From contig OZ244587.1 in the NCBI GenBank assembly GCA_965218095.1, forward strand, positions 160,001 to 224,000: a DNA stretch of 64,000 bases, read 5' to 3'. This stretch comes from Candidatus Poribacteria bacterium. Its GTDB lineage: Bacteria; Poribacteria; WGA-4E; PCPOR2b. Shown in pieces: positions 1,209 through 49,547 of the stretch. The notes beneath the pieces were generated by a model. The model saw nothing but the letters and a program-made list of their open reading frames with translations. It had not been told where the DNA came from and searched no databases. The stretch's first letter is position 1. Every line of letters begins with the position of its first letter. Made by a program: the position numbers and the translations under genes.

Positions 1209-2540
1209 ATGTCTACACATGGTAGAATTAGTCAACTGAGAACAGTTCTTTTGGAAAAAATACAACCGACGAGCATGTACTTCTACATCAACTTCGTCAT
1301 TCGGCTGGCAGTTCAGGTCTGGCGTCAACTTATCCATCATAAATGTCTCCAGCAAGCATCTTCATTGGCATTTACCACACTCATTTGCCTCGTCCCGCTA
1401 TCAGCAGTTGCTCTGTTCCTGCTGCAAAAACTCGGTGTAATTGAGGACTTCGTTGTCTATATCTGCAATAACTTCCTGCCGGGGTATCAAGCGGATGAGA
1501 TTGCATCAGGGATTTCTGGATTTGCCAAAGAGGCGCAAGGGAGTTTAGGCGCAGGAGGATTGCTGTTACTGCTGCTCATCTCAACAGCGCTGTTCAGCTC
1601 GGTGGAAAAAATCTTTAACGATATCTGGGACACCCGTAGACGGCTTTCCTTCTTCCAAAAATACGCAGTCTTCTATACGATCACCACAGTGGGCACGCTC
1701 TTGATGTGGTTTTCCATTTCAGTCTCCACGAATTGGCTATTTAAATATCTCCTGCCCTGGCTGTTTATGTATGCTGCCTTGTTATTGATATATAATGCTT
1801 TACCGAACACAGTTGTCCAGTGGAAATCAGCGCTGGTTGGCGCGTTGATTGCAGGCACGTTTTTCCAAAACGCGCGGGTAATTTTCGGATATTACCTTGC
1901 CAACATCGTCGGAAAGAACTACAGCATGATATATGGGGGTGCCCTGGCAATACCGATTCTGGCAGTCTGGATCTACATTGTGTGGGTAATTATTCTTCTC
2001 GGCGCAGAGATTACCCATGCCGTTCAACATCTGAAACATAGCAGATTCAGGCAGATAGGCGAAGGGCTAATCACACCAAACGTCAACGATGATAAGATTG
2101 TTTTTATGAACTCGATCTTAGTAATCAGGTTGTTTCTGACAGTTGCGGAACATTTTTATAAAGGCGAGGGGGCTTACCCAAAATCACAAATTATATTAAA
2201 ATACGGTCTTTCTGGTGATCTAATGAATCGAATCTTTACGCAATTCAGAGAGGAAGGGCTCATTTACGAGGTGGAAGGAAATACCAATGGATACATCCCG
2301 GCGCGTGCTTTGAGCGACATTACTTTGGATCAGGTCATCAGTGCTTTTGAGGGCAATATAGATGGGCTCACCCAGAATAGCGATGCGTTCTCTGAAGCTA
2401 CCGAACAGTTTTTGGATCAGGTTCGCACTGCACCTCAAGAGATTGCGCGAAGTCGAAGTATTGAGGAACTTGTTGCATCCACCGAACTAACGAAGATTTA
2501 TCGTGCTGAGAAACGAGACGATAAGACGGTAGGGATGTAA
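1209..2540 (+). CDS. YihY/BrkB family membrane protein with C-terminal Rrf2-like wHTH
   Basis: ASSLAFTTL..LVP, FNDIW, Y..IYG, WIYIVWVIILLGAE motifs; C-terminal GY.PAR....ITL..V. Confidence 0.85.
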   Translation: MSTHGRISQLRTVLLEKIQPTSMYFYINFVIRLAVQVWRQLIHHKCLQQASSLAFTTLICLVPLSAVALFLLQKLGVIEDFVVYICNNFLPGYQADEIASGISGFAKEAQGSLGAGGLLLLLLISTALFSSVEKIFNDIWDTRRRLSFFQKYAVFYTITTVGTLLMWFSISVSTNWLFKYLLPWLFMYAALLLIYNALPNTVVQWKSALVGALIAGTFFQNARVIFGYYLANIVGKNYSMIYGGALAIPILAVWIYIVWVIILLGAEITHAVQHLKHSRFRQIGEGLITPNVNDDKIVFMNSILVIRLFLTVAEHFYKGEGAYPKSQIILKYGLSGDLMNRIFTQFREEGLIYEVEGNTNGYIPARALSDITLDQVISAFEGNIDGLTQNSDAFSEATEQFLDQVRTAPQEIARSRSIEELVASTELTKIYRAEKRDDKTVGM

Positions 2541-2566
2541 GACAAGGAACCCATGAATTCACGCTC

Positions 2567-3154
2567 TTATTCGTCTGTTCGTTCACTTGCTTCAGGTTGT
2601 GGCATCGTACCGAACTTCACATTGGAAGCCTCCGCAGCATTCACAACCTCACGCACAATCTGCATTGTGAGATCCGCCAGGTTTTGTGCAAACACCTGGT
2701 TACTTTGCTTAGATTCTATCGAATCACGGTATCGTGTGCCGCGCCGTAGTTCAGCCAGCCGATGGTTGGCAATGCCAAGCGCGGTGGTAACGAGTTCGGC
2801 CGGCACATAAAGTGGCTCTGCCGAAGATATTTCTGTCACCGAACTAACAGGGTGGTCGGGTGTTGCTGTTTCGTCGAGGGAGTCGCCTGCCAAAAATGCC
2901 TCCTTGTGGGATTCTATTGATTCAAGGATCTGCTTGGCTGCTATATGTTCCGCCAACCGTTTAGATCCACGAATCGGATCTAGCGTCGTGTAGGTTGCCT
3001 CCCCATATTTAACAGTGACAACCCAACTCGGCTCGTTGGGCGTTCCCTCGTGAACCGTTTCGTACACTGGATTTCCTAGCGCACGTTTTTGGCAGTATTG
3101 TTGAAGTATGCCTTTATAGTTTTCAACCGTTGTGTTGATGACTGATTCTGACAT
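2567..3154 (-). CDS. Stand-alone double-stranded RNA-binding domain (dsRBD) protein
   Basis: N-terminal NYKGILQQYCQK...PVYE...GSKRLAEHIAAKQIL matches the dsRBD pattern; no RNase III catalytic domain. Confidence 0.75.
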   Translation of the reverse strand: MSESVINTTVENYKGILQQYCQKRALGNPVYETVHEGTPNEPSWVVTVKYGEATYTTLDPIRGSKRLAEHIAAKQILESIESHKEAFLAGDSLDETATPDHPVSSVTEISSAEPLYVPAELVTTALGIANHRLAELRRGTRYRDSIESKQSNQVFAQNLADLTMQIVREVVNAAEASNVKFGTMPQPEASERTDE

Positions 3155-3274
3155 TCAAACCTCCGGAGGAACAACTTTGATTCAAGTGCATTACTGAGTA
3201 GTGTATCAAAAATTGGGGGCAACGGCAAGGAATTTCCAGTTTGATTCGATTGGCGCGAAATTTAACAAGGAGGT

Positions 3275-4419
3275 GTGACTTTGGCAACACGAGAAGAACG
3301 TCGGGCATATCAGATGCGATTGAAGAAATTCAAGGAGGCAGCGGTGCGTAGCAATCTTGAGACCATGCGGGCAATTCTTGAGGAAGATTCCAAGGTTTTG
3401 GAGGAGGACACACCGATGCTGGATGCCTGTTTGTATGGTCAGCCGAAGGCAGTGAAATTCATGCTGGACCACGGCGCGCTTGCCGAGCCAGCGGGCGAGT
3501 ATGCGCCGCGGCGACCACTCATCCGGGCAATCGTCCGAACCAAATCGGTGTCGTGGACCCATGGCCACAGGCAGGTTGTCGAACTCTTGCTCAACCGCGA
3601 CGTGCACACGGGGCCAGAGCAGTCATGGAACGGGCAGACAGCCCTCAGCGCCGCGGCGTCGGTGGGCAACCGGGAAGCAATCGATATGCTGCTTGCCCGT
3701 AACCCAATAGTCGACATCTTCGATGCCGCCGCCCTCGCTGACAGCGACCGGGCCGATCAATTTCTCAGGGGAGATCCAGGACTAGCGAAAGCAAATTCAG
3801 CCGGTTATGCCACCGCCCTGCACTACTGTGCCTATTCGGCGCTCGGCGCTGATGATCCGGACGCGGCAAAACGACTCGCCAAGATCGCTGAAACGCTAAT
3901 TTCGCTTGGCTCGCCAATTGAGCCGGTCAAGGTGGAAGGCAACGTGACCTATTCCGCCCTGACGCTCGCGTGTCTTGTTGGCAATGAAGCCGTGGCTGGA
4001 GTTCTGCTGCAAAATGGAGCGGATGCCAACGAAGCGCTTGAACCGGCGCTCGGCCGACAGCATCTGAACATCCTTGATATGATGGTTAAGTACGCGGGCG
4101 AGCTCAACCTTAATCGCAGGACAGGCAATAAGCTGCGAAATCCACTTCTCAACGAACTGATTCGATGGGGCTCGCTCAAACCGCAGGTTGGTTGCTTGCT
4201 CAAGGTGTGAAGCCAACGGAGACTGATACGAATGGCTGGACGGCCTTGCACTACGCGTCCCGTCGTGGTGTAAACACAGACCTCCTTCAGGAACTGCTCA
4301 ATCACGGGACGGAAATCAACGCAAGAACCAAAGAGGACAAGACATCGCTTGGGATAGCGCGTGAACGCAAGAAACAGAAGATTGTCGCTTTCCTTGAAGA
4401 ATATGGCGCGACGGAATGA
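3275..4419 (+). pseudogene. Ankyrin-repeat protein, split by a frameshift near 4180
   Basis: Repeated GxTALxxAA motifs (GQTALSAAA, ATALHYCA, GWTALHYAS); ORFs 3275-4210 and 4165-4419 in different frames; AGGAGG RBS before GTG. Confidence 0.8.
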
Positions 4420-4749
4420 TTCTGGTATAAAAATCTTGCGAAGGAAAATCTTGCGAAGGTTTGAAACCTTCGCAGGGGTAATCTTCTTTAACTAGAAACT
4501 CCCCACGCATCGGCTCCAATCGAGTTTACCGAGGGGTTTACCAACTTTTCAGGCGCCGGCTGTGACATTCCAGTCAAAGTATATAATATTTATACGATGA
4601 GATCTATCCGCTGAAGACCTTACCTAAAGGGCAGGACAAACCCTATTCTGCTGTGAGGCGACGACAAGAAGCTTATTCCCAGGGGACGCCGCGAAAAATC
4701 GCTTGCCTCTGACACAACTTTCTGATACACTTTGATAATATGTTATACT

Positions 4750-4875
4750 TATACCGCAACAGGTTATGACTTACATCATCGGCGTCCTGTCCTGCATCTT
4801 GAATCTGGTACCCATCTAAGATGCAAGATTCAGGATTCAAGATACAAAAGCGTCATTATGCCCTTTTGCAGTATA
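4750..4875. mobile_element. Candidate MITE with TA ends, containing inverted heptamer repeats
   Basis: Imperfect terminal IRs TATACCGCAACAGG..TTATGAC / GTCATTA..CCTTTTGCAGTATA; internal GATGCAA/GATTCAA/GATACAA repeats. Confidence 0.45.
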
Positions 4876-4950
4876 TCACGACGTGCAAAATTAGACAAAT
4901 GAACACTGCCACGGGTTTAATCAAATTCCACTAACGCGAACAAAATTTAC

Positions 4951-5799
4951 ATGACGCTGAAGGAGATCCGCAATTATCTTGCTGGACGATTGCCCATCGA
5001 AAAAATCCCGTTAACCTGGGATGCAACCGGCTATACCTCCGAAGCCTTTAACCAATGGGTGAGTGATCCGACCTTTTCAGGATGGCCAGGCGAGCACCCC
5101 ACAGGAAAGGAAGTTCAAGTCATTGTCGAGCTCCTGAAGACTCGCCCCGGGGATTTTCTCCTGGATGTGGCTTGCGGCTACGGGCGGCATACCCTTCTGT
5201 TAGCAGATGAGTATCAACTGAAGGTCGCAGGAATTGATATGTCGCCGGGCCTCATCACCGCAGCGACACGATTTGCTAACGAGCAACAGTTGGACATTGT
5301 TTATGAAGTCAGGCATGGGGCAGACCTCCCCTGGCAGAATGAATTTGATAGCGCCATGATCGTGGATAGTTCATTCTCTCTTTTCTCACCGGAGGTCGCT
5401 CCGGTTGTTTTACGCGGTATCCATCGGGCCCTTTGCCCGACAGGTCGCCTTTTTCTAGATCTAGACAACAAGCCCTTCAACTGCCGGCATGGTGTCTCAG
5501 ACACGAATTGGCATACATGGCCTGGCGGTTTGACTTTGCGGGACATCTACTTTTATGAGGATAGTTCCGTGGAAGTCTGTCGCGATCTGATTTTGAAGCC
5601 GGATGTGAAAGAGGTAGACGAATTCATCATTTTCAAGCGCATCTATTCTCAGGCGGAAATTTTGAACCTGCTCTCATCCTGTGGCTTTCGAGTGGAGGGA
5701 GTCTATGGAGGCTGGGATCTATCGCCTTTGGAGCAGGGCAGTCCCAAGATGCTTTTAGTCGGTGAGAAAAGGATCCGTCCTCTTGTTCCCAAACTCTAG
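4951..5799 (+). CDS. Class I SAM-dependent methyltransferase
   Basis: LLDVACGYGRH motif I, GIDMS, C-terminal GF.V..VYG.W. Confidence 0.85.
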   Translation: MTLKEIRNYLAGRLPIEKIPLTWDATGYTSEAFNQWVSDPTFSGWPGEHPTGKEVQVIVELLKTRPGDFLLDVACGYGRHTLLLADEYQLKVAGIDMSPGLITAATRFANEQQLDIVYEVRHGADLPWQNEFDSAMIVDSSFSLFSPEVAPVVLRGIHRALCPTGRLFLDLDNKPFNCRHGVSDTNWHTWPGGLTLRDIYFYEDSSVEVCRDLILKPDVKEVDEFIIFKRIYSQAEILNLLSSCGFRVEGVYGGWDLSPLEQGSPKMLLVGEKRIRPLVPKL

Positions 5800-5911
5800 T
5801 CCCGATAGGATTGGCATCCAAAGCAACTTGGGAATGAGCCGATACCATGAATTCATTTACGTTTTATGCATTACGTTTTACGTTTCGTTTCACGAAAGGA
5901 GGTGAGATGAA

Positions 5912-6709
5912 ATGCCTGAAGGACAGCAAGAACAGCGAATTCTTGCCGTGTTTATTGATTTTGAGAACCTCGCTATCGGATTTGAAGAGAAACAAAAGGA
6001 ACGAAAGGGGCGCAACGGACAGTCGGATTTTGACGTTCAGAAGATTTTGGGGCGTCTGGTTGAAAAAGGGAATGTTGTTGTCAAAACAGCTTATGCTGAT
6101 TGGCACCGTTTCTTTAAGCACCGACAGCCACTCCACGAAGCAGGCATTGAGTTAATCGAGATTCCGAGGCGTTCAAGAGCCGGCAAGAATTCAGCGGATA
6201 TTCGGTTGTGCGTCGATGCCATCGATTTGTGCTATTCAAAGGAACATATCGATACTTTCGTCGTTATTTCGGGAGATAGTGACTTTGCACCACTCGTTTC
6301 CAAGCTCAAGGAAAACGGAAAGTATGTCATTGGGCTTGGCTTGAAAGAATCCACTTCAAATCTCTTGAGCGATAACTGCGACGAGTTTATCTACTACGAG
6401 GAACTTGAGAAAGACGAAACCACAGATCCGCGCGCGGAAAGGAATATCCCGAGGGAGTTACGGGATGTCTTTGATCTGCTATTCAGCACCATACGCGCAC
6501 TGATCCGTGAGAACCATGAAGTCTTGTGGTCTTCAATGATTAAAGATACGATGAAGCGGAAACGCCCTTCATTTAGCGAATCGTTATACGGATACAAATC
6601 CTTCAGCGAGCTCCTCGAAGATGCCCAACACAGGGGGTTTATTGTGTTGGAAAAGAACCTACGCAGCGGCACGTATGTAGTCGTCGGTTTTACGGAGAAG
6701 ATGAAGTAG
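5912..6709 (+). CDS. NYN (LabA/DUF88) domain ribonuclease with C-terminal OST-HTH/LOTUS domain
   Basis: FIDFEN, KNSADI, SGDSDF motifs; C-terminal FSESLYGYKSFSELLE. Confidence 0.9.
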   Translation: MPEGQQEQRILAVFIDFENLAIGFEEKQKERKGRNGQSDFDVQKILGRLVEKGNVVVKTAYADWHRFFKHRQPLHEAGIELIEIPRRSRAGKNSADIRLCVDAIDLCYSKEHIDTFVVISGDSDFAPLVSKLKENGKYVIGLGLKESTSNLLSDNCDEFIYYEELEKDETTDPRAERNIPRELRDVFDLLFSTIRALIRENHEVLWSSMIKDTMKRKRPSFSESLYGYKSFSELLEDAQHRGFIVLEKNLRSGTYVVVGFTEKMK

Positions 6710-6742
6710 CTGAACCTTAAAATGATTGAGGCAACCGCATAG

Positions 6743-8029
6743 TTGCTGTTTAATTCGACCATGAACTGTCCGCCAATACTTTCCAGAATATCACCTCGAA
6801 TCCGTTCCCTTTTGCGAGAGATTGGAGAGGTCAGGGCAGAAACTTTCCGGTCTGTCTGTATCATCGGGGGCTTTGTCCGCGATCGCCTCATCGGGCGTGA
6901 GGATTTAGACCTTGACATTGTATTGGAAGGGGATGCCATTGGATTTGCGCGTCAGCTTGCCGAGGCGTGGGGTGGTGAGGTACAGGCACATTGCAAATTC
7001 AGGACAGCAACAGTGACACGTCCTGACGGATTGAAGGTCGATTTTGTCAGTGCACGTACCGAAACTTATCCGTGTCCCGGTGCGTTACCATCGGTAAGAT
7101 ATGGTACAATCGAAGATGACCTCCGGCGGCGCGATTTCTCGATTAACGCCCTCGCCATCCAACTGAATCCCGACTTCTTTGGCGAGCTCGTTGATTGCAC
7201 GGACGGCCTACAGGACTTACGCGCCGGGCGCATTCGCGCGCTGCATGATCGGAGTTTCATTGACGATCCAACCCGGATCTTCCGGGCGATACGGTACGAG
7301 GGGCGTTACGGCTTTCAGATCGTCAAAGCCGATCAAGAGCGCATTCGTGATGCGATAGGCCAGAGCATCTTGGACCAAATCAGTGGACAGCGCATCCGAA
7401 ACGAAATCGACCGCATCCTGACGGAAGAAGCTGCACGGCAAATAATCCAGCGCATGCTCGAATTTGATCTCTTTCGCGTCATTCACCCGGTTTGGGAAAT
7501 CCCCCGGAATTTTGACGCGCTTTGGAACGCCGCTGGTCAAGCGATTGATTGGGTGGAAAGGCATCTCCCAAATGATCAGATCGATACGGAAGCAATACTC
7601 TGGATGACGTTGATGGGCGCGGCACACCATGTTCCTATATCTGCGATTGAAGCGATTAGCGATAGATTGGCATTGGAAAATCAGTTGCGGGCAAAGCTAA
7701 TCGCAACAGGACAATTGTGGTGTGCTTTAGACACGCTCTCAGCATCTTCCAAGTCGAGTGAAGTATATCAGTTATTAAACCTTTATCCACCGGAACCGCT
7801 CGCTTTTGCACTGATGCAGCCGAATCAACCCGATTGGCGCATGGAAGAGATCAGGAATTATCTGACACACTTGAGGGGCATTCAACCTTTAATCACCGGA
7901 GATGATCTGATCCAACTGGGCTTGAAGCCAGGCCGGGCATTTGCGGATGTGCTATGGAAGGCATTCGCTGCACAGTTAGATGGAAAGGTATCGACCAAAC
8001 AGGAAGCCTGCCAACATTTGGGGTATTAA
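6743..8029 (+). CDS. cca: CCA-adding tRNA nucleotidyltransferase (class II)
   Basis: GGFVRD, DLDIV, DL.RRDFSINA, DDPTRIFRA motifs; true start may be ATG 6761; CCA- versus A-adding specificity not resolved. Confidence 0.85.
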   Translation: MLFNSTMNCPPILSRISPRIRSLLREIGEVRAETFRSVCIIGGFVRDRLIGREDLDLDIVLEGDAIGFARQLAEAWGGEVQAHCKFRTATVTRPDGLKVDFVSARTETYPCPGALPSVRYGTIEDDLRRRDFSINALAIQLNPDFFGELVDCTDGLQDLRAGRIRALHDRSFIDDPTRIFRAIRYEGRYGFQIVKADQERIRDAIGQSILDQISGQRIRNEIDRILTEEAARQIIQRMLEFDLFRVIHPVWEIPRNFDALWNAAGQAIDWVERHLPNDQIDTEAILWMTLMGAAHHVPISAIEAISDRLALENQLRAKLIATGQLWCALDTLSASSKSSEVYQLLNLYPPEPLAFALMQPNQPDWRMEEIRNYLTHLRGIQPLITGDDLIQLGLKPGRAFADVLWKAFAAQLDGKVSTKQEACQHLGY

Positions 8030-8035
8030 AGTCTA

Positions 8036-8719
8036 ATGCACTTGGACCCATTTTTTGCAATCGTCACCGTTTCTCAATTTATCGTTTTACTCACTTTTCA
8101 TGAATGGGGGCATGCCAAATCTGCCAACATACTGGGCGATCCGACCGCCAAAGATGAAGGACGAATGTCGTTTAATCCCGCAGCACATATTGACCTAATC
8201 GGAACGATCATCCTGCCCTTGATTGGCACGCTATTTGGTGGAGGCTTTTTCGGTTGGGCAAAGCCTGTACCTGTGGATCCGCGCTATCTGAAAAATCCTA
8301 AACGGGATCTAATGATTATTGCCGCGGCGGGGCCGATCATGAATATTATCTGTACCATCGTCATCTTGGGGATCGTCAAGATCTTAGAGGTAACGATTGG
8401 ATTCCCTCAAAGCGGATCGGTCACACAATATCAAATCCGTCAAATCCTATTTATGCGGACCGCGATTATTAGTGTTTGGCTTGCAGTATTCAACATGCTT
8501 CCGTTGTTTCCACTCGATGGATTCAGCGTTGTACGTGGGCTTCTTCCTTGGAGACAGGCTCATGAATTTGAGAAACTACGTCCTTATGGTATGATGATTT
8601 TAATGGGAATCCTTTTTATACCGGGTCTGCTAAGAATTCCAAACCTTGTCTTTTTGGCGATGGGAAAGGTTGTGACCGTTATTTTCGCTACGATTGCAAT
8701 GCTGGTAGGTTTAAGATGA
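8036..8719 (+). CDS. Site-2 protease family (M50) membrane metalloprotease
   Basis: HEWGH, GWAKPVP, AGP, FNMLPLFPLDG. Confidence 0.9.
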   Translation: MHLDPFFAIVTVSQFIVLLTFHEWGHAKSANILGDPTAKDEGRMSFNPAAHIDLIGTIILPLIGTLFGGGFFGWAKPVPVDPRYLKNPKRDLMIIAAAGPIMNIICTIVILGIVKILEVTIGFPQSGSVTQYQIRQILFMRTAIISVWLAVFNMLPLFPLDGFSVVRGLLPWRQAHEFEKLRPYGMMILMGILFIPGLLRIPNLVFLAMGKVVTVIFATIAMLVGLR

Positions 8720-8775
8720 ATTTGGAGGGAATGTGGATTTAATAACAGATCGGAGTTAGAAGGGAAATCACAGAA

Positions 8776-9756
8776 ATGCAAAAAACACGCTTAGTGAGTG
8801 GGATTCGCCCAACGGGGCTGCTGCATATTGGGCATCTCGAAGGGATGTTGAAGAACACAGCAAGTCTGCAAAACAAATACGAGTGTTATCCGTTTATCGC
8901 GGATTGGCATTCGCTCACCGATGTGACTGACACATCGAACCTTTCCCAATACATATTGCAAGCAGCGATCGATTGGTTGAGCGCGGGGATCAATCCGGAC
9001 AAGAGCACCCTCTTCGTTCAATCGCACGTTCCCGAACATGCGGAGCTCTCCACCTTACTCACAATGGTTACGCCGGTGTCTTGGCTTGAACGGTGTCCAA
9101 CGTACAAAGACAAAATTCAAAACCTCAATCAACGCGAGGGACCTTCAACCGGCTTACTAGAATATCCGGTGTTGATGACGGCAGATGTGATTGTCTACAA
9201 GGCAGAGGTGGTAGCTGTTGGAGCGGATCAGGTTGCACACCTTGAAATCTCGCGGGAGATTGTTCGCCGATTCAACCATTTATTCGGGAAAGTTTTCCCA
9301 GAGCCGCAGCCGATGTTGACGGAAACCTCTGAGTTGCCAGGGCTTGATGGTCGCAAGATGAGTAAGAGCTATAGTAATGCTATTCAGTTGTCAGATCCAC
9401 CTCAGGCCACACAGACAAACATTATGAAGATGGTAACAGATCCGGGGCGTGTCCGTCGCACTGACCCCGGCGATCCCGATGTCTGCCCTGTTTTTGCATA
9501 CCATAAGGTCTACAATCTCGACGAGGCACCGCAGATTGATCAGGATTGTCGCTCCGCCGCGATCGGGTGTGTCAATTGTAAGCGGAATCTCAGCAATAAG
9601 CTGATCGCTGCCCTCGAACCGTTTTATGAAAAACGGGCTCAATGGGCATCAAAGCCGAAAGCGGTTCGTGAAGTCCTCGCGGAGGGAGCGAGCCGGGCCA
9701 AGGGAGTCGCTCAGGAAACAATGGCGGAAGTTCGATCCGCGATGAAGTTGGCGTAA
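8776..9756 (+). CDS. trpS: Tryptophan--tRNA ligase
   Basis: SGIRPTG.LHIGH, KMSKS, VGADQ. Confidence 0.97.
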   Translation: MQKTRLVSGIRPTGLLHIGHLEGMLKNTASLQNKYECYPFIADWHSLTDVTDTSNLSQYILQAAIDWLSAGINPDKSTLFVQSHVPEHAELSTLLTMVTPVSWLERCPTYKDKIQNLNQREGPSTGLLEYPVLMTADVIVYKAEVVAVGADQVAHLEISREIVRRFNHLFGKVFPEPQPMLTETSELPGLDGRKMSKSYSNAIQLSDPPQATQTNIMKMVTDPGRVRRTDPGDPDVCPVFAYHKVYNLDEAPQIDQDCRSAAIGCVNCKRNLSNKLIAALEPFYEKRAQWASKPKAVREVLAEGASRAKGVAQETMAEVRSAMKLA

Positions 9757-9824
9757 AACTTGACGCTAAAATAAAGGTACTGGCTGAAATATTCGCGCCA
9801 TAGAAAGGGAATAAGGTAGTCCGT

Positions 9825-10589
9825 ATGGGTCCTACAACCGCAACTGTGAATCCTCATCCCCCAAAAGCCATCTATGCAATCAAACTTGATGTCTTTGAAG
9901 GTCCCTTAGACCTGTTGCTCCATCTGATCCAAAAGAATGAGATGGAGATCACGGACATTCCAATCGCAGAGATTACCGAGCAGTATCTGGAATATCTCAA
10001 CTTCATGGAGATGCTAGATCTCGATGTTGCATCGGAATTCCTGGTCATGGCGGTAACATTGCTTCACCTCAAGTCCCAGAGTATTCTCCCTGCGGTGACC
10101 TCGGATGAATCCCAAACTTTCAAAGACCGGGAAGAACTGGTCAGACAGCTTTTGGAGTACAAGCAGTTTAAGGAAGCTGCCCAGGCGCTAGATTGCTACG
10201 CAACGAGCCGTGAGAAACTCTATGGCCGCAACGTCGACCCATACGCAGATGTAGAAGTAGAAGAATTGCGGGATGTGCAGATTAAAGCAACACTCTTCGA
10301 CCTCCTCTCCGCCTTCAAGCATGTAACCGAGCAACAATTTATAGTTGATGACTATTATGAGGAGATTCAGGAAGAACCGATCACCGTTGAGGAAAAGATG
10401 GAATTTTTGGAACGCAGACTTAGCGACGGCGAGCAGATTCGGTTCAACGACCTGTTTTCGGAGTTTGCAAACAAGCTGGAGCAAATCGTCACATTTTTAG
10501 CAGTCTTGGAGTTGATGCGCCTTCAGCAGGTCGTCACGGTGCAATCGGGCCACTTTGAGAACATTTATATCGTGAAGCGTGATGCGTAA
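9825..10589 (+). CDS. scpA: Segregation and condensation protein A
   Basis: FEGPLDLLLHLI and IVTFLAVLEL kleisin motifs. Confidence 0.95.
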   Translation: MGPTTATVNPHPPKAIYAIKLDVFEGPLDLLLHLIQKNEMEITDIPIAEITEQYLEYLNFMEMLDLDVASEFLVMAVTLLHLKSQSILPAVTSDESQTFKDREELVRQLLEYKQFKEAAQALDCYATSREKLYGRNVDPYADVEVEELRDVQIKATLFDLLSAFKHVTEQQFIVDDYYEEIQEEPITVEEKMEFLERRLSDGEQIRFNDLFSEFANKLEQIVTFLAVLELMRLQQVVTVQSGHFENIYIVKRDA

Positions 10590-42615: not shown

Positions 42616-43606
42616 ATTTCGATACGCTACGCTGCTCAATCCAGGGATTCAGAATCGCTCTGTTTGCGCGGCGTTGAACGCAGGTGATATGCTGCGCCGT
42701 GATTGAATGGAGATAAAGTTATGGCAGATAACGTTCTCGCAGTTATCCTCGGTGGTGGGGCCAGCGCACGACTCTTCCCTCTTACCAGAGATTGAGCAAA
42801 ACCAAGCGTGCCAATCGCCGGTAAATTCCGTTTGGTTAATGTCCCAATCAGCAACTGCCTTCATTCAGGCGTAGAACGGATCTATGTCCTCACTCAGTTC
42901 AATTCGGTGTCCTTGAATCGCTACATCGCTCAGGCATACCGCTTCGATTCGTATCGGAGTGGTTTCGTGCAGATTTTAGCCGCCCAGCAAACACTTGATG
43001 GTGGTGATTGGTATCAAGGCACAGCAGATGCCATTCGACGCAACGAATCGTACATCATCAGCCCGACATTTCCGGATGAGCACATTCTGATTCTCGCCGG
43101 TGATCACCTCTACCGCATGGACTATCGAAAGATGCTGGAAGTTCACGTCAACTCGCAGGCGGATATTATGATCTCTGTCATTCCGGTTCACCAAGACGTC
43201 GTGAGTGGGCTTGGGTTTTACAGGTTGATGGGGAGGGACGAATTATCGATTTTGGGCAGGACATCATCCCTAAGAGTATTCACACAAAACGGGTGTTTGC
43301 TTACTTCTTTGATGGTTACTAGGAGGATATTGGGACGATCAAGGCTTTTTACCATGCCAACCTGGGGCTCACCGATCTCTTCCCCAAATTTAACTTCTAT
43401 GATGAACACGCCCCTATCTATACGCGCCGTCACCACCTCCCGAGCACCAAAGTCAACGACAGTCGTATTAGCTCTTCAATCCTCTCGGAAGGCTCGATTA
43501 TTGACGAGTCCGAAATCGACAGATCCATCATCGGCATTCGGAGCATCATCTCCGGTAACTCTCGAATCTACCAGTCGATTCTGATGAGAGTAGACTATTA
43601 GAGTTA

Positions 43607-44544
43607 ACCCAAGTTGCGGACTATTCATCGAATATGTGAGTGAACTCAGAGTTGATTGATATTGCTGGCCAGTACAAACAACACCACTTTCAATTCAAAT
43701 CCTTGTGGCGTGACGGCATGGATACAACGCGGGAGCAATCTCTCAATTAAACTCCCACCCGTCTCAACAGACTTACGATAGTAAGTAGCCAGATAGGTCT
43801 CCCATGGCGGATATGCTCGCTTTGAATTCTTCTTGCGTATCGGCTTCAACTCCACTTCGACCGCTGCAACAATATCTTCTATTTCATAGTTATTGTACGC
43901 TTTGTCTCAGTAGACCCGGCTACCCGGTGGCAAGTCGAAGTCAAAACAGTGTAACCCTTCGACGTCGCCGATGCGCGCTGGAGTCACAAAGAATTCAATG
44001 GGCTGTTGGGCAGCGGTAACTAGCAGATGAACCTTCAAGATATCGGCGTTTAGCTGCTTGATAGCCTCGAAATGCCTCATCTGTGTAGATTTTCGACCAA
44101 CGAATGCGAATATTGTCACAGACAACAATTGGCACCGTATCCATCACATAAAGTTTCTGTTGATTGAGTTGCAAAAGCTTTCAGCCAAGATTTTGAACCA
44201 TGTGATGAACATCGGTTTAATTCGGTGAAGTTGTCGATTGAACCGATTCTTTGACAGCATCTTTGGGATATATCGATGAGTCTGGAGAAAGTCACGAACC
44301 GTTTGGAAGTTGGTGCCGAAAAAGAGTGCAGCGACGATGGCGGTGGTCATGCCTTCGGCGTCAGACATCTGAGTTTGTGGATTGGGTTGATGGTCGAATG
44401 CTTCTAAGAGCTTGTCACACAGATAGAAAACGGTTGCCATCTGGATATCCATGGGTTTCTCCTTTGAGGTTATGGTTGAACACCTCAACTTTAACGGAAA
44501 ACCCATGGATTTGCAATAGGTTTAGGTTAGATAGCAACTTAGGT
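43607..44544 (-). mobile_element. IS982-family element with fragmented transposase
   Basis: MSDAE.MTTAIVAALFF..N, MLSK.RFNR.LHRI, IHAVT.QGFELKV.LF in three broken ORFs; inner end GCAACTTAGGT at 44534-44544. Confidence 0.85.
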
Positions 44545-44568
44545 TATCCATATCATTAAAAAAAACAG

Positions 44569-45888
44569 ATGCCTACAAAATCGAAATCAGGTCAGTGGAA
44601 ACAGTATCGCCCCGCCAAGAAGGTCGGCAAATTATGTTATCACAATTGTACAATGGACTCCGAGTTTCCATTGCGTAATGTTCTAGGCAAATCCACAGAA
44701 CCCAACTATGAAATGGCGACCTACAATTGGTGCGCCTGCTGTAACCAACCAGCCGTTCGCACTGCTGTCCAATGTGGTCTATCACACCTCCTGTTTATTA
44801 CGAAGTATAAGGGCAGGAATGAATGCTACAGGGATCGCTATTTTATCGTCGGCTACTACGAACTGGGGTGGACAGCAGAGATCAACGGGTGCACTGCCAT
44901 TCGAGCGAAAAACCTCTGTTTTGTACCGGTTGAGCACGCCTACGAAATTACAGATGGGCGGTGGCAATGTATCAATCCTCACGGCGAGACGACACGCTTG
45001 ACGAATTTGCGGTGGGCGACGCAACGTATCAGTGAAATCTGCCTCGACAAAATTGTGCAACATCTTGATAAACACAACCGGGTGGCTGATTATCTGTTAG
45101 AGGTTGCCCGACTGAAAGCAAAATACAATCCATTTCAGGATGTTCCCAAAGGGCGCATTTTCATCATAAACGTTGGGGCGAATACCAGCCATCGGCAACA
45201 AAGCCCACTGTTTAATGACAGAACGTTTGAGTTTATACCCATTCCCGGAGGGCACGATGAGGGGTTGACCTACGCCGATCTCCGTCAATTCAACGATCCC
45301 GATATGCCGTTGTTCGATCGATTTGCTGACTCTGCCATCTCACCATCGAAGAAGGTTCACAACGATCCCGAATTTGCCACCTTTACCTACGGCGACAATC
45401 TTCGCAAAAAGGGCGGGTTGCGTCAGTTGCAAGCGGGTGATTTCCTCTTCTTTTTGGCGCGTTTGGTGCCGTATGCGGCGCGGCAATTTGATGAAAAAAA
45501 TGCCAGATTTGCGTTGATCGGCTACCTCGAGATTGAGGAGCGTTTCGATAACCCCGATGATCTAATGTTCACTAGTCCGGCGCTCAATAAGAATGCACAC
45601 GTCATGCGATGGGTGAACAACCCGGCAAGCTTTACCAACTATGCCGTTTTCAAAGGGTCGATCAACTCCCGACGCTTCCACACCGCTGTACCTTTTGACC
45701 GCAAATTTGTCGAACATATCCCTATCCTAAAAAAGAATCGAACAGCTTGGAAGTGGGGGAAACAGACTGACCTCGGCGTTATCGGCTCAAATACTAGAGC
45801 AGTACGCATGCACATCGATCCGAAAAAAGATAAAAAACGTGCGAAACGATTTTGGAAACGTATTTGGAAATTGCAAAGTTGGTCTTGA
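44569..45888 (+). CDS. Two-domain protein: uncharacterised N-terminal domain plus Nmad3-like (nucleotide-modification-associated) domain
   Basis: C-terminal half: INVGAN..SPLF.D.TFEFIPIP, Y.DL, VH.DPEF.TFTYGD, L..GD.LFF...L, IGY..I, NAH; intact 439-aa ORF. Confidence 0.7.
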   Translation: MPTKSKSGQWKQYRPAKKVGKLCYHNCTMDSEFPLRNVLGKSTEPNYEMATYNWCACCNQPAVRTAVQCGLSHLLFITKYKGRNECYRDRYFIVGYYELGWTAEINGCTAIRAKNLCFVPVEHAYEITDGRWQCINPHGETTRLTNLRWATQRISEICLDKIVQHLDKHNRVADYLLEVARLKAKYNPFQDVPKGRIFIINVGANTSHRQQSPLFNDRTFEFIPIPGGHDEGLTYADLRQFNDPDMPLFDRFADSAISPSKKVHNDPEFATFTYGDNLRKKGGLRQLQAGDFLFFLARLVPYAARQFDEKNARFALIGYLEIEERFDNPDDLMFTSPALNKNAHVMRWVNNPASFTNYAVFKGSINSRRFHTAVPFDRKFVEHIPILKKNRTAWKWGKQTDLGVIGSNTRAVRMHIDPKKDKKRAKRFWKRIWKLQSWS

Positions 45889-46042
45889 CGTAAGTCATCC
45901 TGAATTTTTTTTCAATCCCAGTGCCTCTGCGAATCTCCTAAGCTTTGGAAATGAGGAATGGAATGTAAAACGTAGTTACTTGAGGATAACCATTTTTCGC
46001 AACGACGAAACACCGTCCCCATGTAGCTGGTAGAAATAGATA

Positions 46043-46194
46043 ACCCGAGTTGCCACCTTGATAAGAAAAGGGGCAGAAACCGAGTTTTTTACGATGAATC
46101 AATACGAGTTGTGCGAAAACGGGCCCAATTTGCTCAGCATGTGGGAAACGGCCGCCAAAAACTCGGTTTCTCTGGAATAGGTCGCAACTTGGGT
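46043..46194. mobile_element. IS982-derived MITE
   Basis: Ends ACCCGAGTTGCC / CGCAACTTGGGT; internal inverted AGAAACCGAGTTTTT / AAAAACTCGGTTTCT. Confidence 0.75.
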
Positions 46195-46748
46195 TAGAGT
46201 TAATTGGAAATAAGCCGATTCTACAATATGTTGGGTAATAAACGACAATTTACTGCTAAATATTGTGGCTTGTCGTTATTTCCAAATATGTCTATTATGA
46301 AACAGAGAAACAGAAGAGGCAGAATCAGGAAAATGGCATTCTAGCTGTTGGCGTTGGAAGAAACTACCTGATTCAAGGTGCCATTGTTGACAAAAACGCC
46401 AGAATTGGAGAAAACTCAACGATTGCCAACACCGAGAATAAGGAACACTTTGACGGTGATAATTACTATATTCACGACGGTATTGTGATTATCCTTGACG
46501 ATGCGGTGATCATGCCAGGAACGGTAATCTGAGACATGAAACGTGATGCGTAAAACGTAAAGCGTAATATACCACGATAGGTCGTGCGCCTTACATCTTG
46601 AATCCCCGATGGATCGGGATAAACTGCGCGGAGATTCAGGCGACGAAAGCGTCATTTGTGACTGTCCGCAGTATAATTCATTGCCTTATCCATTTCATTC
46701 CCACCCTTCCATTCTTCCTTTCCTTCCAGCCTTCCTCATTCCTTCTTC

Positions 46749-48286: not shown

Positions 48287-49547
48287 TATAATGGATCCCG
48301 AAATCTGTACCACCAATTAAGTCAGAAATTCGTCGAATGAATACTCATTCAAAATGGAGGGTCCAATATGTCTACGAAAAGAATTCGGCACACCGCCAAG
48401 TTCAAGTTTACTATTGCTATTGAGGCGATAAGGGCAGACAAAAGTATCAATCAACTGGCAAGTGAACACCAACTGCACCCCAGCCAAATCAGTCAGTGGA
48501 AAAAACAACTCCTTGACCAAGGGAGCCAAATTTTATCTAACATCGCTGCCAAACATCAACTCAAGCAGCACCAAAGGGAGTCAGACCTATATGAACAAAT
48601 CGGTCGGCTGAATATGGAACTCGACTGGTTGAAAAAAAAGCGACCCCATCGAGTTGAACAAAAACGCGCATGGATTGAAGCGAACCATCCTAAGCTGAGT
48701 ATTCGTCGCCAGTGTGAGTTGCTTGGTTTTTCCCGCTCAACGCTCTACTACCAACCCGCACAAGAATCGGAGGAAAATCTCAGGTTGATGTAGCTGATTG
48801 ATGAGCAGTATATGAAGACACCCTTTTACGGTAGCCGCCGAATGACCCAATATCTCAAACGCCTTGGCATAGATGTCAATCGCAAGCAGGTTCAGCGACT
48901 GATGAAGATACTGGGCATAGAAGCGATTTATCCCAAACTCAAGTCCTCAGCCATCAACAGCAAGCATCGGATTTACCCATACCTGTTGCGTGATTATGTG
49001 GTTGAAACTCCCAATGAGGTCTGGTTAGCAGACATCACATATCTACCGATGAATAAAGGGTTTATGTATCTGGTTGCGATACTCGACTGGTATAGTCGTT
49101 ACGTCATTACTTGGGAGCTATCCAATCGTCTAGAAGGTCAGTTCTGCCTCGACGCCTTGCATCGCGTATTAGCTTGGGCAACCCCTACCATCTTCAATAC
49201 CGACCAAGGCGTCCAGTTTACCGCCAATGCTTTCACCAATACTATTGAAACTGCTGGTATTGCTATGAGTATGGATGGCGTGGGTCGAGCCATTGACAAC
49301 ATTTACATCGAGCGGTTTTCGTGCTCCGTCAAGTACGAAGATGTTTACCAGAAACTCTACCAGACGGGACAAGCCCTTTTTGATGGATTAGCTAACTATA
49401 TCCGTTTCTATAATGAGCAACGACCGCACCAGAGTCTTGATTATGCAACGCCGGCTGAGGTGTATCTCGGCTAAAACAGCGTCGGTATATCTCAAACATC
49501 TTACTTATTTTTCCATTACTTTGGCCTTGAGCATGGGGTCCACTTTA
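48287..49547 (+). mobile_element. IS3-family insertion sequence; transposase has in-frame TAG at 48791-48793
   Basis: Imperfect IRs TATAATGGATCCC / GGGGTCCACTTTA with GAC TSD; OrfA HTH, W.ADITY, NTDQG.QF, DN..IERF. Confidence 0.88.

Follow-up and report, generated by a model that had tools for sequence, protein, structure and literature searches.

What does a protein do that appears to consist of two PUA-like domains, and whose gene is the sole passenger of a transposon? This question is raised by a 439-amino-acid (aa) open reading frame (ORF) in the 64,000-nucleotide stretch analyzed here (referred to as the window, i.e., positions 160,001 to 224,000 of contig OZ244587.1 from a Candidatus Poribacteria genome, GCA_965218095.1, that is probably the genome of a sponge symbiont). 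The ORF is uninterrupted by stops, has its stop codon within the coordinates given below, and is present as one copy in the 6.35-Mb single-contig genome. The answer we favor, which we regard as plausible if not quite probable, is that an enzyme-like C-terminal Nmad3 domain and a degenerate N-terminal partner domain (referred to as N-like) act on modified nucleotides or bases in the conflict between host and mobile elements. The gene and its two halves are located as follows:

44569..45888, plus strand: gene for the fused N-like and Nmad3 protein (from the ORF, its homologues, the ratio of nonsynonymous to synonymous substitution rates (dN/dS), and an AlphaFold2 (AF2) model)
44569..45144, plus strand: N-terminal N-like domain, residues 1–192, with a predicted PUA/YTH-like fold, apparently paralogous to the Nmad3 core but degenerate
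45145..45885, plus strand: C-terminal Nmad3 domain, residues 193–439, Pfam PF18754, with a predicted PUA/EVE-like fold

In a large protein collection, 269 homologues of the 439-aa protein were found, about 85 of which were full-length (38–85% identity), the remainder being mainly ~250-aa proteins that match the C half alone. The C half had been assigned an Nmad3 pattern in an initial annotation made from the sequence, and Pfam bore this out (PF18754, residues 196–347, E 5e-21, 75.9 bits vs. a cut-off of 27), with the match spanning profile positions 1–164 of 247 only. The name Nmad, short for nucleotide modification associated domain, derives from predicted links to DNA-modification gene clusters. 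Like the stand-alone Nmad3 proteins of ~250 aa, the C half carries the H-x-D-P, G-D, and (N/H)-x-H invariants and has a PUA/EVE-like predicted fold; unlike them, the window protein has an extra N-terminal domain, and no modification enzymes adjoin its gene. For residues 1–195, no Pfam family match was found. A scan of the whole protein against NCBIfam gave no match, and one against PHROGs gave a single weak match (phrog_34025, E 6e-5).

The initial annotation had also seen a parallel motif series running through both halves, and this series proved to be real. By BLASTP, the N half matched the C half weakly (E 0.047), pairing EMATY..LLFITK..RYFIVGYYEL with EFATFTY..FLFFLARL..RFALIGYLEI. Profile–profile alignment with hhalign gave E 0.012 for N-half vs. 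C-half profiles built from 39 homologues, E 6.2e-5 across 94 columns for 37 N-like vs. 18 Nmad3 sequences, and E 1.2e-4 for N-like vs. Nmad3 after all fused-protein sequences had been dropped. When a hidden Markov model (HMM) of the N half was run over 8,433 ORFs from stand-alone Nmad3 loci, the top 17 matches were all Nmad3 ORFs (best E 0.0054) and all fell in a single register (HMM positions ~43–108). The profiles likewise align in one register, in which K/T-x-E-P-x-x-E of the N-like domain corresponds to H-x-D-P-E-F of Nmad3, Y-L-F-F-x-T to G-D-x-L-F-F, and F-I-V-G-Y to L-I-G-Y-L. Judging from these alignments, the Nmad3 core is present in the N half as well, in a diverged copy.

Nmad2 (PF18753) was considered as an alternative identity for the N half and rejected, since all HMM and hhalign tests were negative: the N halves of 10 out of 10 homologues matched neither the Nmad2 nor the Nmad3 HMM at E ≤ 10, none of 44 N-like relatives matched Nmad2 at E ≤ 0.01, and hhalign of the N half vs. 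two Nmad2 proteins revealed no similarity (E 0.35–0.66). The layout itself does recur in the Nmad2–Nmad3 pairs and fusions of Pseudomonadota, where a protein or domain of ~200 aa lies upstream of Nmad3 or is fused to its N-terminus. Pfam Nmad2 is directly upstream of Nmad3 at 2 of 10 Pseudomonadota loci (near an AbiEii toxin and a transposase), and in an ESM Atlas cluster of ~451-aa proteins, 98% of the members bear Nmad3 and 83% bear Nmad2. In contrast to these, the N half of the window protein represents a separate family without a Pfam model and shows no PF18753 match.

The extent of this family was revealed when 1.84 billion representatives were searched with a profile of 14 N halves: 215 proteins matched at E ≤ 1e-3, and most were stand-alone proteins of 180–250 aa (about 200 aa). 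A Pfam scan of 44 of the relatives returned no credible family for any of the 34 stand-alone ~200-aa proteins (with one weak sub-threshold match), and the N half is, by this measure, a member of an unannotated family of its own. Among the relatives, P0191 (432 aa) shows the reverse order (Nmad3 at 2–221, followed by N-like at 255–410), and in one 950-aa protein (source label Elusimicrobiota) the N-like domain shares a chain with a HAD phosphatase and a methyltransferase. Many stand-alone N-like proteins also carry a Cys-rich C-terminal tail with invariant C211, C229, and C237 (in 8 sequences), which may be a zinc ribbon and is absent from the fused protein.

Scanning metagenome contigs with patterns of the stand-alone N-like proteins, i.e., with Nmad3 forming no part of the query, yielded 73 loci, of which 8 had no callable N-like ORF and 10 had a contig end within 400 bp, leaving 55 that were assessable. 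At 40 of these, the N-like gene adjoined or was fused with Nmad3, while 15 were without Nmad3. The Nmad3 gene was located directly downstream on the same strand at 30 loci (often overlapping the N-like gene by a few bases), upstream at 2, fused at 3, and in another adjacent arrangement at 5. It is this recurrent adjacency and fusion that marks N-like plus Nmad3 as a conserved two-gene module of which the window protein is the fused form. No third gene was conserved beside the split module, the largest neighbor cluster occurring in 4 loci. One further candidate partner domain, the N-terminal 176 aa of a 418-aa ORF (L129), was rejected as an Arg/Gly-rich and apparently spurious upstream extension.

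The fold of both halves was approached through an AF2 model of the fused protein (39-sequence alignment), which reached a predicted local distance difference test score (pLDDT) of 86.7 and a predicted template modeling score (pTM) of 0.87. On its own, Foldseek returned weak matches (best E 0.028), all of them to YTH, EVE, ASCH, or McrB-N domains, and VIA was needed to place each half. With VIA, residues 15–179 aligned to the YTH domain 7nh2 (Z 8.4, 130 of 150 residues) and residues 193–437 to the EVE-type structure 2p5d (Z 8.3, 138 of 145 residues), as well as to PH1033 (Z 8.2) and ASCH (Z 7.8). In a Foldseek-independent search of 48,161 PDB chains, ranks 1–24 were all members of the PUA superfamily (YTH, EVE including VcaM4I and THYN1, ASCH, and McrB-N), with a best Z of 8.2 for each half vs. 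2.6 at rank 50. A canonical stand-alone Nmad3 modeled separately (pLDDT 86.1) had the same structural neighbors (PH1033, Z 7.3, 139 of 143 residues aligned). Across these searches, structural similarity to YqfB was weak (Z 2.2–2.7). A PDB sequence search with the family profile gave 0 matches at E ≤ 10. In the predicted model, both halves thus look like the PUA-type EVE/YTH/ASCH fold, and the proposal of a single chain combining two divergent PUA/EVE-like folds finds support in the AF2 model, VIA, the 48,161-chain search, and hhalign alike.

The EVE, YTH, ASCH, and McrB-N domains (including that of the EVE-HNH enzyme VcaM4I) are therewith the best and only consistent structural neighbors of both halves, and in EVE-type modification-dependent restriction enzymes this fold likewise occurs in mobile, defence-rich contexts. 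The window protein differs from these neighbors in having no sequence similarity to them and no fused nuclease or GTPase, in its tandem domains, and in a His/Asp set instead of an aromatic cage. According to Pfam, it contains no nuclease, NTPase, or membrane effector domain, the two PUA-like domains filling the chain.

Such neighbors, all of which are binding domains (YTH, EVE, McrB-N), would also fit a pure tandem reader, in which both domains bind a modified base and shield, mark, or sequester it without catalysis. The missing effector domain and a set of aromatic residues invariant within the fused family (F269, W394, W396, F428, and W429) favor this explanation as well. The residues conserved throughout Nmad3 tell differently: in a 19-sequence alignment running from the window protein to canonical Pseudomonadota members, the invariant columns are (in window numbering) G203, D217, I225, H264, D266, P267, G275, D291, F295, and H344, i.e., mainly His, Asp, and Gly rather than aromatics, and G203, H264, D266, P267, G275, D291, F295, and H344 are also kept in 39 out of 39 fused homologues. 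The PUA fold can moreover be catalytic, the ASCH N4-acetylcytidine (ac4C) amidohydrolases YqfB and EOLA1 being reported as enzymes with this fold that act on a modified nucleoside. The loss of residues is also one-sided, which fits a catalytic subunit with a partner better than two equal readers. Indeed, the N-like family retains only P45, T78, and G95 (with P34, R36, E48, and C58 being nearly invariant); in the profile alignment, it has K or T at the position of H264 and E at that of D266, and lacks the segment bearing H344. All in all, we consider a tandem reader rather improbable.

Within the N half of the fused protein, E44-P45-N46-Y47-E48 and C58 are invariant. The Cys cluster (WCACC) that had been noticed in this half is only partly upheld, as C58 (39 of 39 homologues) and C27 (37 of 39) are conserved, but the cluster as such is not: C23 is retained in 33, C55 in 29, and C57 in 5 of the 39.

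The invariant His/Asp set of Nmad3 thus looks more enzyme-like than reader-like, with the polar invariants (H264, D266, D291, and H344, together with G203 and G275) suggesting a metal- or phosphate-binding catalytic site over an aromatic reader cage. In the reading we favor, the Nmad3 half would hold the working pocket, be it catalytic or metal-/phosphate-binding, whereas the N-like half, which has kept the fold and the [DE]-P..[EF] turn and lost the His/Asp residues, would be a non-catalytic partner that helps to hold the substrate. Many two-subunit enzymes that modify nucleic acids have an inactive subunit as such a substrate-holding partner. The pair would act either on a modified nucleotide or on a base modified within DNA or RNA. 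A free modified nucleotide (m6-dAMP) is what the PUA-Cal-HAD system reportedly senses, and a likeness to that system is seen in the N-like relative fused to a HAD phosphatase and methyltransferase mentioned above. Compared with YqfB/EOLA1 and with PUA-Cal-HAD, however, the catalytic residues differ and the window protein shares no partner domains.

The surroundings of the gene were resolved into the following features:

43607..46194, no strand: composite unit of insertion sequence (IS), passenger gene, and miniature inverted-repeat transposable element (MITE), 2,588 bp, with ends ACCCAAGTTGC ... GCAACTTGGGT (from the inverted repeats, the target-site duplication, and glgC)
43599..43606, no strand: left copy of the target-site duplication, TAGAGTTA (from the sequence)
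46195..46202, no strand: right copy of the target-site duplication, TAGAGTTA (from the sequence)
43607..44544, minus strand: IS982-like IS with its transposase broken into three ORFs (from repeat copies and a weak NCBIfam match)
46041..46194, no strand: MITE of ~155 bp from the same IS, with a left-inverted-repeat-like end TAACCCGAGTTGCC ... and a clean right inverted repeat (from the sequence and 4 other genomic matches)
46195..46294, no strand: MITE-like element of ~100 bp with its own inverted repeats (from the inverted repeat and a 97-bp copy elsewhere with 99% identity)
42721..43598, plus strand: 5′ part of a glgC pseudogene, aa 14–178 and 247–364 (from tblastn with an intact 442-aa GlgC, Pfam, and NCBIfam)
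46293..46532, plus strand: 3′ part of the glgC pseudogene, aa 364–442 (from the same evidence)

That the gene is mobile, as had been claimed at the outset, was confirmed for the present genome by the inverted repeats, the target-site duplication, and the interrupted gene. The ends of the unit form a 22-nt inverted repeat (91% complementary), its distal end being provided by the IS-derived MITE, and its 1.5 kb of passenger DNA holds the fused N-like and Nmad3 gene as sole gene. At the proximal side, the right inverted repeat of the IS itself is degenerate (GCAACTTAGGT after an 11-bp insert) and ends ~24 bp upstream of the gene's ATG. At least 32 copies of the IS (77–86% identity) are present in the genome. 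The 19 other copies compared have the same ends (ACCCAAGTTGC...GCAACTTGGGT), and copies that could be read through are flanked by 7–9 bp duplications starting with TA, matching the style of the 8-bp TAGAGTTA. Of these 19 copies, 2 encode an intact 293-aa transposase; in 15, no ORF is longer than 169 aa; most copies may be either broken or frameshift-using. The broken transposase in the window matches IS982 in NCBIfam as fragments only (E 5.8e-5, 22.8 bits vs. a cut-off of 130). Taken together, terminal repeats of the same IS, a target-site duplication, intact transposases elsewhere, and an interrupted glgC are all present, as in a composite transposon.

The interrupted gene can be followed with a GlgC query from a related genome, which aligns as aa 14–178 (42721–43215), 247–364 (43245–43598), and 364–442 (46293–46529), i.e., resuming at the identical residue (364) on either side of the insertion. 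Near 43215–43245, an internal deletion of ~68 codons with a frameshift is present, so that glgC is dead twice over, by this deletion and by the 2.7-kb insertion. The two MITE-like elements at its distal side are unrelated (the one at 46041–46194 being IS-derived and that at 46195–46294 having its own inverted repeats), and the insertion is a nested one, in which the ~100-bp element entered glgC earlier and then served as target of the 2.6-kb unit. A 100% genome match at ~2.17 Mb was considered as a second glgC or empty site and rejected, as it corresponds to the 97-bp repeat of the MITE-like element. Across 13 genomes searched (the own genome and 12 relatives), the glgC query matched only 6. 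Beyond the unit, an IS3-family element occupies 48368–49474, its HTH_Tnp_1 ORF preceding one with an rve integrase core.

DNA contigs from two other studies span the left junction (43400–43650, 0–2 differences) and the IS-to-gene junction (44492–44782, 0–1 differences), and a contig from one of the two runs from the gene through the right inverted repeat into the MITE-like element (45830–46260, 3 differences); with the junctions bridged in this way, the arrangement is real and shared. Public contigs from two runs (X3 and X4) join 44550 to 46040 at ~10x single-copy depth, with 30 other letters replacing the 1.5-kb passenger, and a gene-less form with the IS next to the MITE therefore exists, being either multi-copy or carried by an abundant relative. 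Elsewhere the setting differs: DNA similarity to orthologues in other genomes ends within 25–60 bp of the ORF ends, and since the IS end motif is absent near the homologues at 16 loci of other genomes (L022–L037), the transposon setting is particular to the present lineage.

A unit with a broken transposase that is itself situated inside a pseudogene could carry no more than a decaying passenger, i.e., a captured gene without current function. We regard this as very improbable, given that the frame is intact and the gene is shown to be under purifying selection, with a dN/dS of 0.15–0.32 vs. five orthologues (0.13–0.19 for the C half and 0.26–0.51 for the N half), and that motif residues are kept in 39 out of 39 homologues. 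In addition, contigs from two metatranscriptome runs of one sponge study match the gene at 44636–44805, 44821–45043, 44879–45151, and 45165–45347 with 0–1 differences. These are a weak hint of expression in sponge metatranscriptomes: their depth is ~2.5, and because the same libraries hold pieces of the IS and the glgC remnant at a similarly low depth, the RNA contigs are no proof of specific expression. A promoter scan found 3 sites vs. 3.3 expected; one lies within the IS end, 13 bp 5′ of the ATG, and is not evidence of a promoter.

Stand-alone Nmad3 genes lead to another possibility. In Dehalococcoidia/SAR202, Nmad3 directly adjoins queG at 48 of 60 loci (35 on the same strand and 13 on the opposite strand, in two surrounding contexts), and these proteins have the same Nmad3 domain, with ~40% identity to the C half. 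The genome studied here carries queG (at ~2.127 Mb) and tgt as well, and some fused orthologues are syntenic among relatives (L023 with L031, and L024 with L025, in metabolic contexts), all of which would suit a housekeeping RNA factor in tRNA or rRNA modification (e.g., a queuosine-related one) that came to lie on a transposon incidentally. This explanation seems unlikely to us, since the queG-linked Nmad3 loci have neither an N-like domain in the protein nor an N-like gene nearby, the own-genome queG is ~1.9 Mb from the gene, and no queG or other queuosine gene was found beside the module at 16 fused loci, at 39 split loci (among Pfam-annotated neighbors), or beside Nmad3 at 10 Pseudomonadota loci. 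Nmad3 is moreover patchy: a sample of 401 Pseudomonadota genomes contained it in 12 cases, and none of 14 control genomes had it. Besides the canonical tgt, the genome contains four weak TGT-family paralogues (at ~1273509, 3554616, 288453, and 678095; E 1e-14 to 1e-16), which may be DpdA-like genes for 7-deazaguanine DNA modification.

The neighborhoods of the module were then compared. Around the 16 fused-homologue loci (144 ORFs scanned), neither a conserved partner nor an adjoining DNA-modification enzyme was found, and with no conserved third gene at split loci either, the gene does travel without modification enzymes, as first suggested. The association with base-modification clusters from which the Nmad name stems is hence absent from the window and from these 16 loci, which leaves membership of the domain family unaffected. 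Transposases are near 4 of the 16 loci, and Uma2, DUF4268, Abi_C, SocA/Panacea, PIN, and a Type ISP enzyme are each near one. For the split module, the neighbors within two genes (133 proteins at 39 loci) include, by Pfam, PglZ with BrxL, KwaB, MvaI/BcnI and REase-ARP nucleases, an SNF2 helicase, DUF1156, SIR2, HerA, HEPN, WYL, a dynamin-like GTPase, UDG, terminase, integrase, and three kinds of transposase; LeoA/LeoBC and BrxHII are also found, and 84 of the 133 have no Pfam family. At one such locus (L139, metagenome contig, 2357–10050), the split N-like and canonical Nmad3 genes follow the BREX genes PglZ and BrxL and precede a PDC-S18 candidate defence gene. Because the module is self-contained, has shifting neighborhoods that often include defence or mobile-element genes, and rides a transposon here, we place it in host–mobile-element conflict, where its role might equally be defence or counter-defence.

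The initial annotation had ventured further, seeing in the protein a candidate reader of hypermodified (e.g., phage) DNA and possibly a complete anti-phage system in which a single chain senses such DNA and destroys or blocks it. The modified-base-sensor fold, the mobile and self-contained gene, and the BREX, Leo, Kiwa, and restriction-type genes at some loci would be in line with this, as would a multi-gene system containing an NMAD domain, which was validated as defensive in PMC13092281; in that paper, however, this domain is Nmad2, a different family, and PF18754 is absent from those of its supplement files that were searched. Scanning the 439-aa protein against PADLOC-DB 2.0 gave 0 families at E ≤ 1. 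The fused protein does not combine a reader with a nuclease or NTPase effector, as Type IV restriction enzymes do, and no conserved effector gene adjoins it. A counter-defence role would fit the data equally. Together with the missing membrane effector and phage homologues, and a neighborhood signal that is weakened by its control (see below), this leaves the proposal not borne out, and we deem a single-gene anti-phage system unlikely.

Several of these observations also weigh against the enzyme-and-partner reading that we prefer. The Z scores near 8 are moderate only, and the fold call rests on a predicted model; catalysis is guessed from residue conservation, and an association of the N-like and Nmad3 proteins is implied by fusion and adjacency of their genes. 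The queG adjacency in Dehalococcoidia points to tRNA biology, and the housekeeping-type contexts shared by the two syntenic pairs of fused orthologues indicate that the gene is often inherited vertically. The lack of a PADLOC family counts here too, and homologues were absent from 50,697 phage records, with 72,556 plasmids yielding one partial match (29% of the query); a scan of viral contigs gave 71 pattern matches, none of which was confirmed as a relative. A literature search by the name Nmad3 found no functional study of this family.

The defence-island context belongs among these points as well. At E ≤ 1e-5, 22 of the 133 split-module neighbors match PADLOC (17 of 39 loci), vs. 15 of 132 neighbors (14 of 34 loci) of the queG-linked stand-alone Nmad3 genes of Dehalococcoidia that served as a control, and an enrichment at this threshold was rejected as indistinguishable from that control. 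The control matches were nearly all generic, i.e., 9 ABC ATPases, 2 PrmC-type methyltransferases, 2 proteases, 1 HEAT protein, and 1 RecQ-like helicase. At E ≤ 1e-50, 7 proteins in 4 split-module loci matched vs. 1 in the control. As regards the defence islands expected around the homologues, defence genes do occur at some loci, but their enrichment is weakened by the control; the signal for the split module is suggestive and, after this control, weak.

A bolder version of the favored reading would see N-like plus Nmad3 as a self-sufficient bacterial and archaeal module with two components and an immune or counter-immune role, in which a hypermodified base or nucleotide (e.g., of the 7-deazaguanine or hydroxymethyl-pyrimidine type) is recognized by the degenerate subunit and chemically attacked or removed by Nmad3, the two forming a PUA-fold pseudo-dimer whose fused form is spread by the IS and its MITE. 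We offer this as a speculation with a rather low chance of being right.

Relative to the literature searched, the novelty lies in the family of N-like proteins and the homology that links it to Nmad3, in the two-gene or fused module, and in the capture by an IS and its MITE. In an EVE/DCD survey (PMC7641849), a term search found neither Nmad nor queuosine nor tandem EVE domains mentioned. The present analysis supplies a predicted fold for the Nmad3 family, which thereby gains a partner in the form of an unannotated family with hundreds of members, while the unit in the window offers a clean natural example of an IS that, together with its MITE, captured one gene.

PUA-fold domains are the main means by which cells and defence systems sense modified bases, and the importance of the finding lies in Nmad3 being a named family on this fold class whose function is only predicted. 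Whether adjacent, fused, or reverse-fused, the module is amenable to cloning and testing in the form of one gene or two. Should the His/Asp pocket prove catalytic, Nmad3 would add a new class to the enzymes built on the PUA scaffold, and should the module affect the fate of phages or plasmids, it would represent a new system, and a compact one, of defence or anti-defence.

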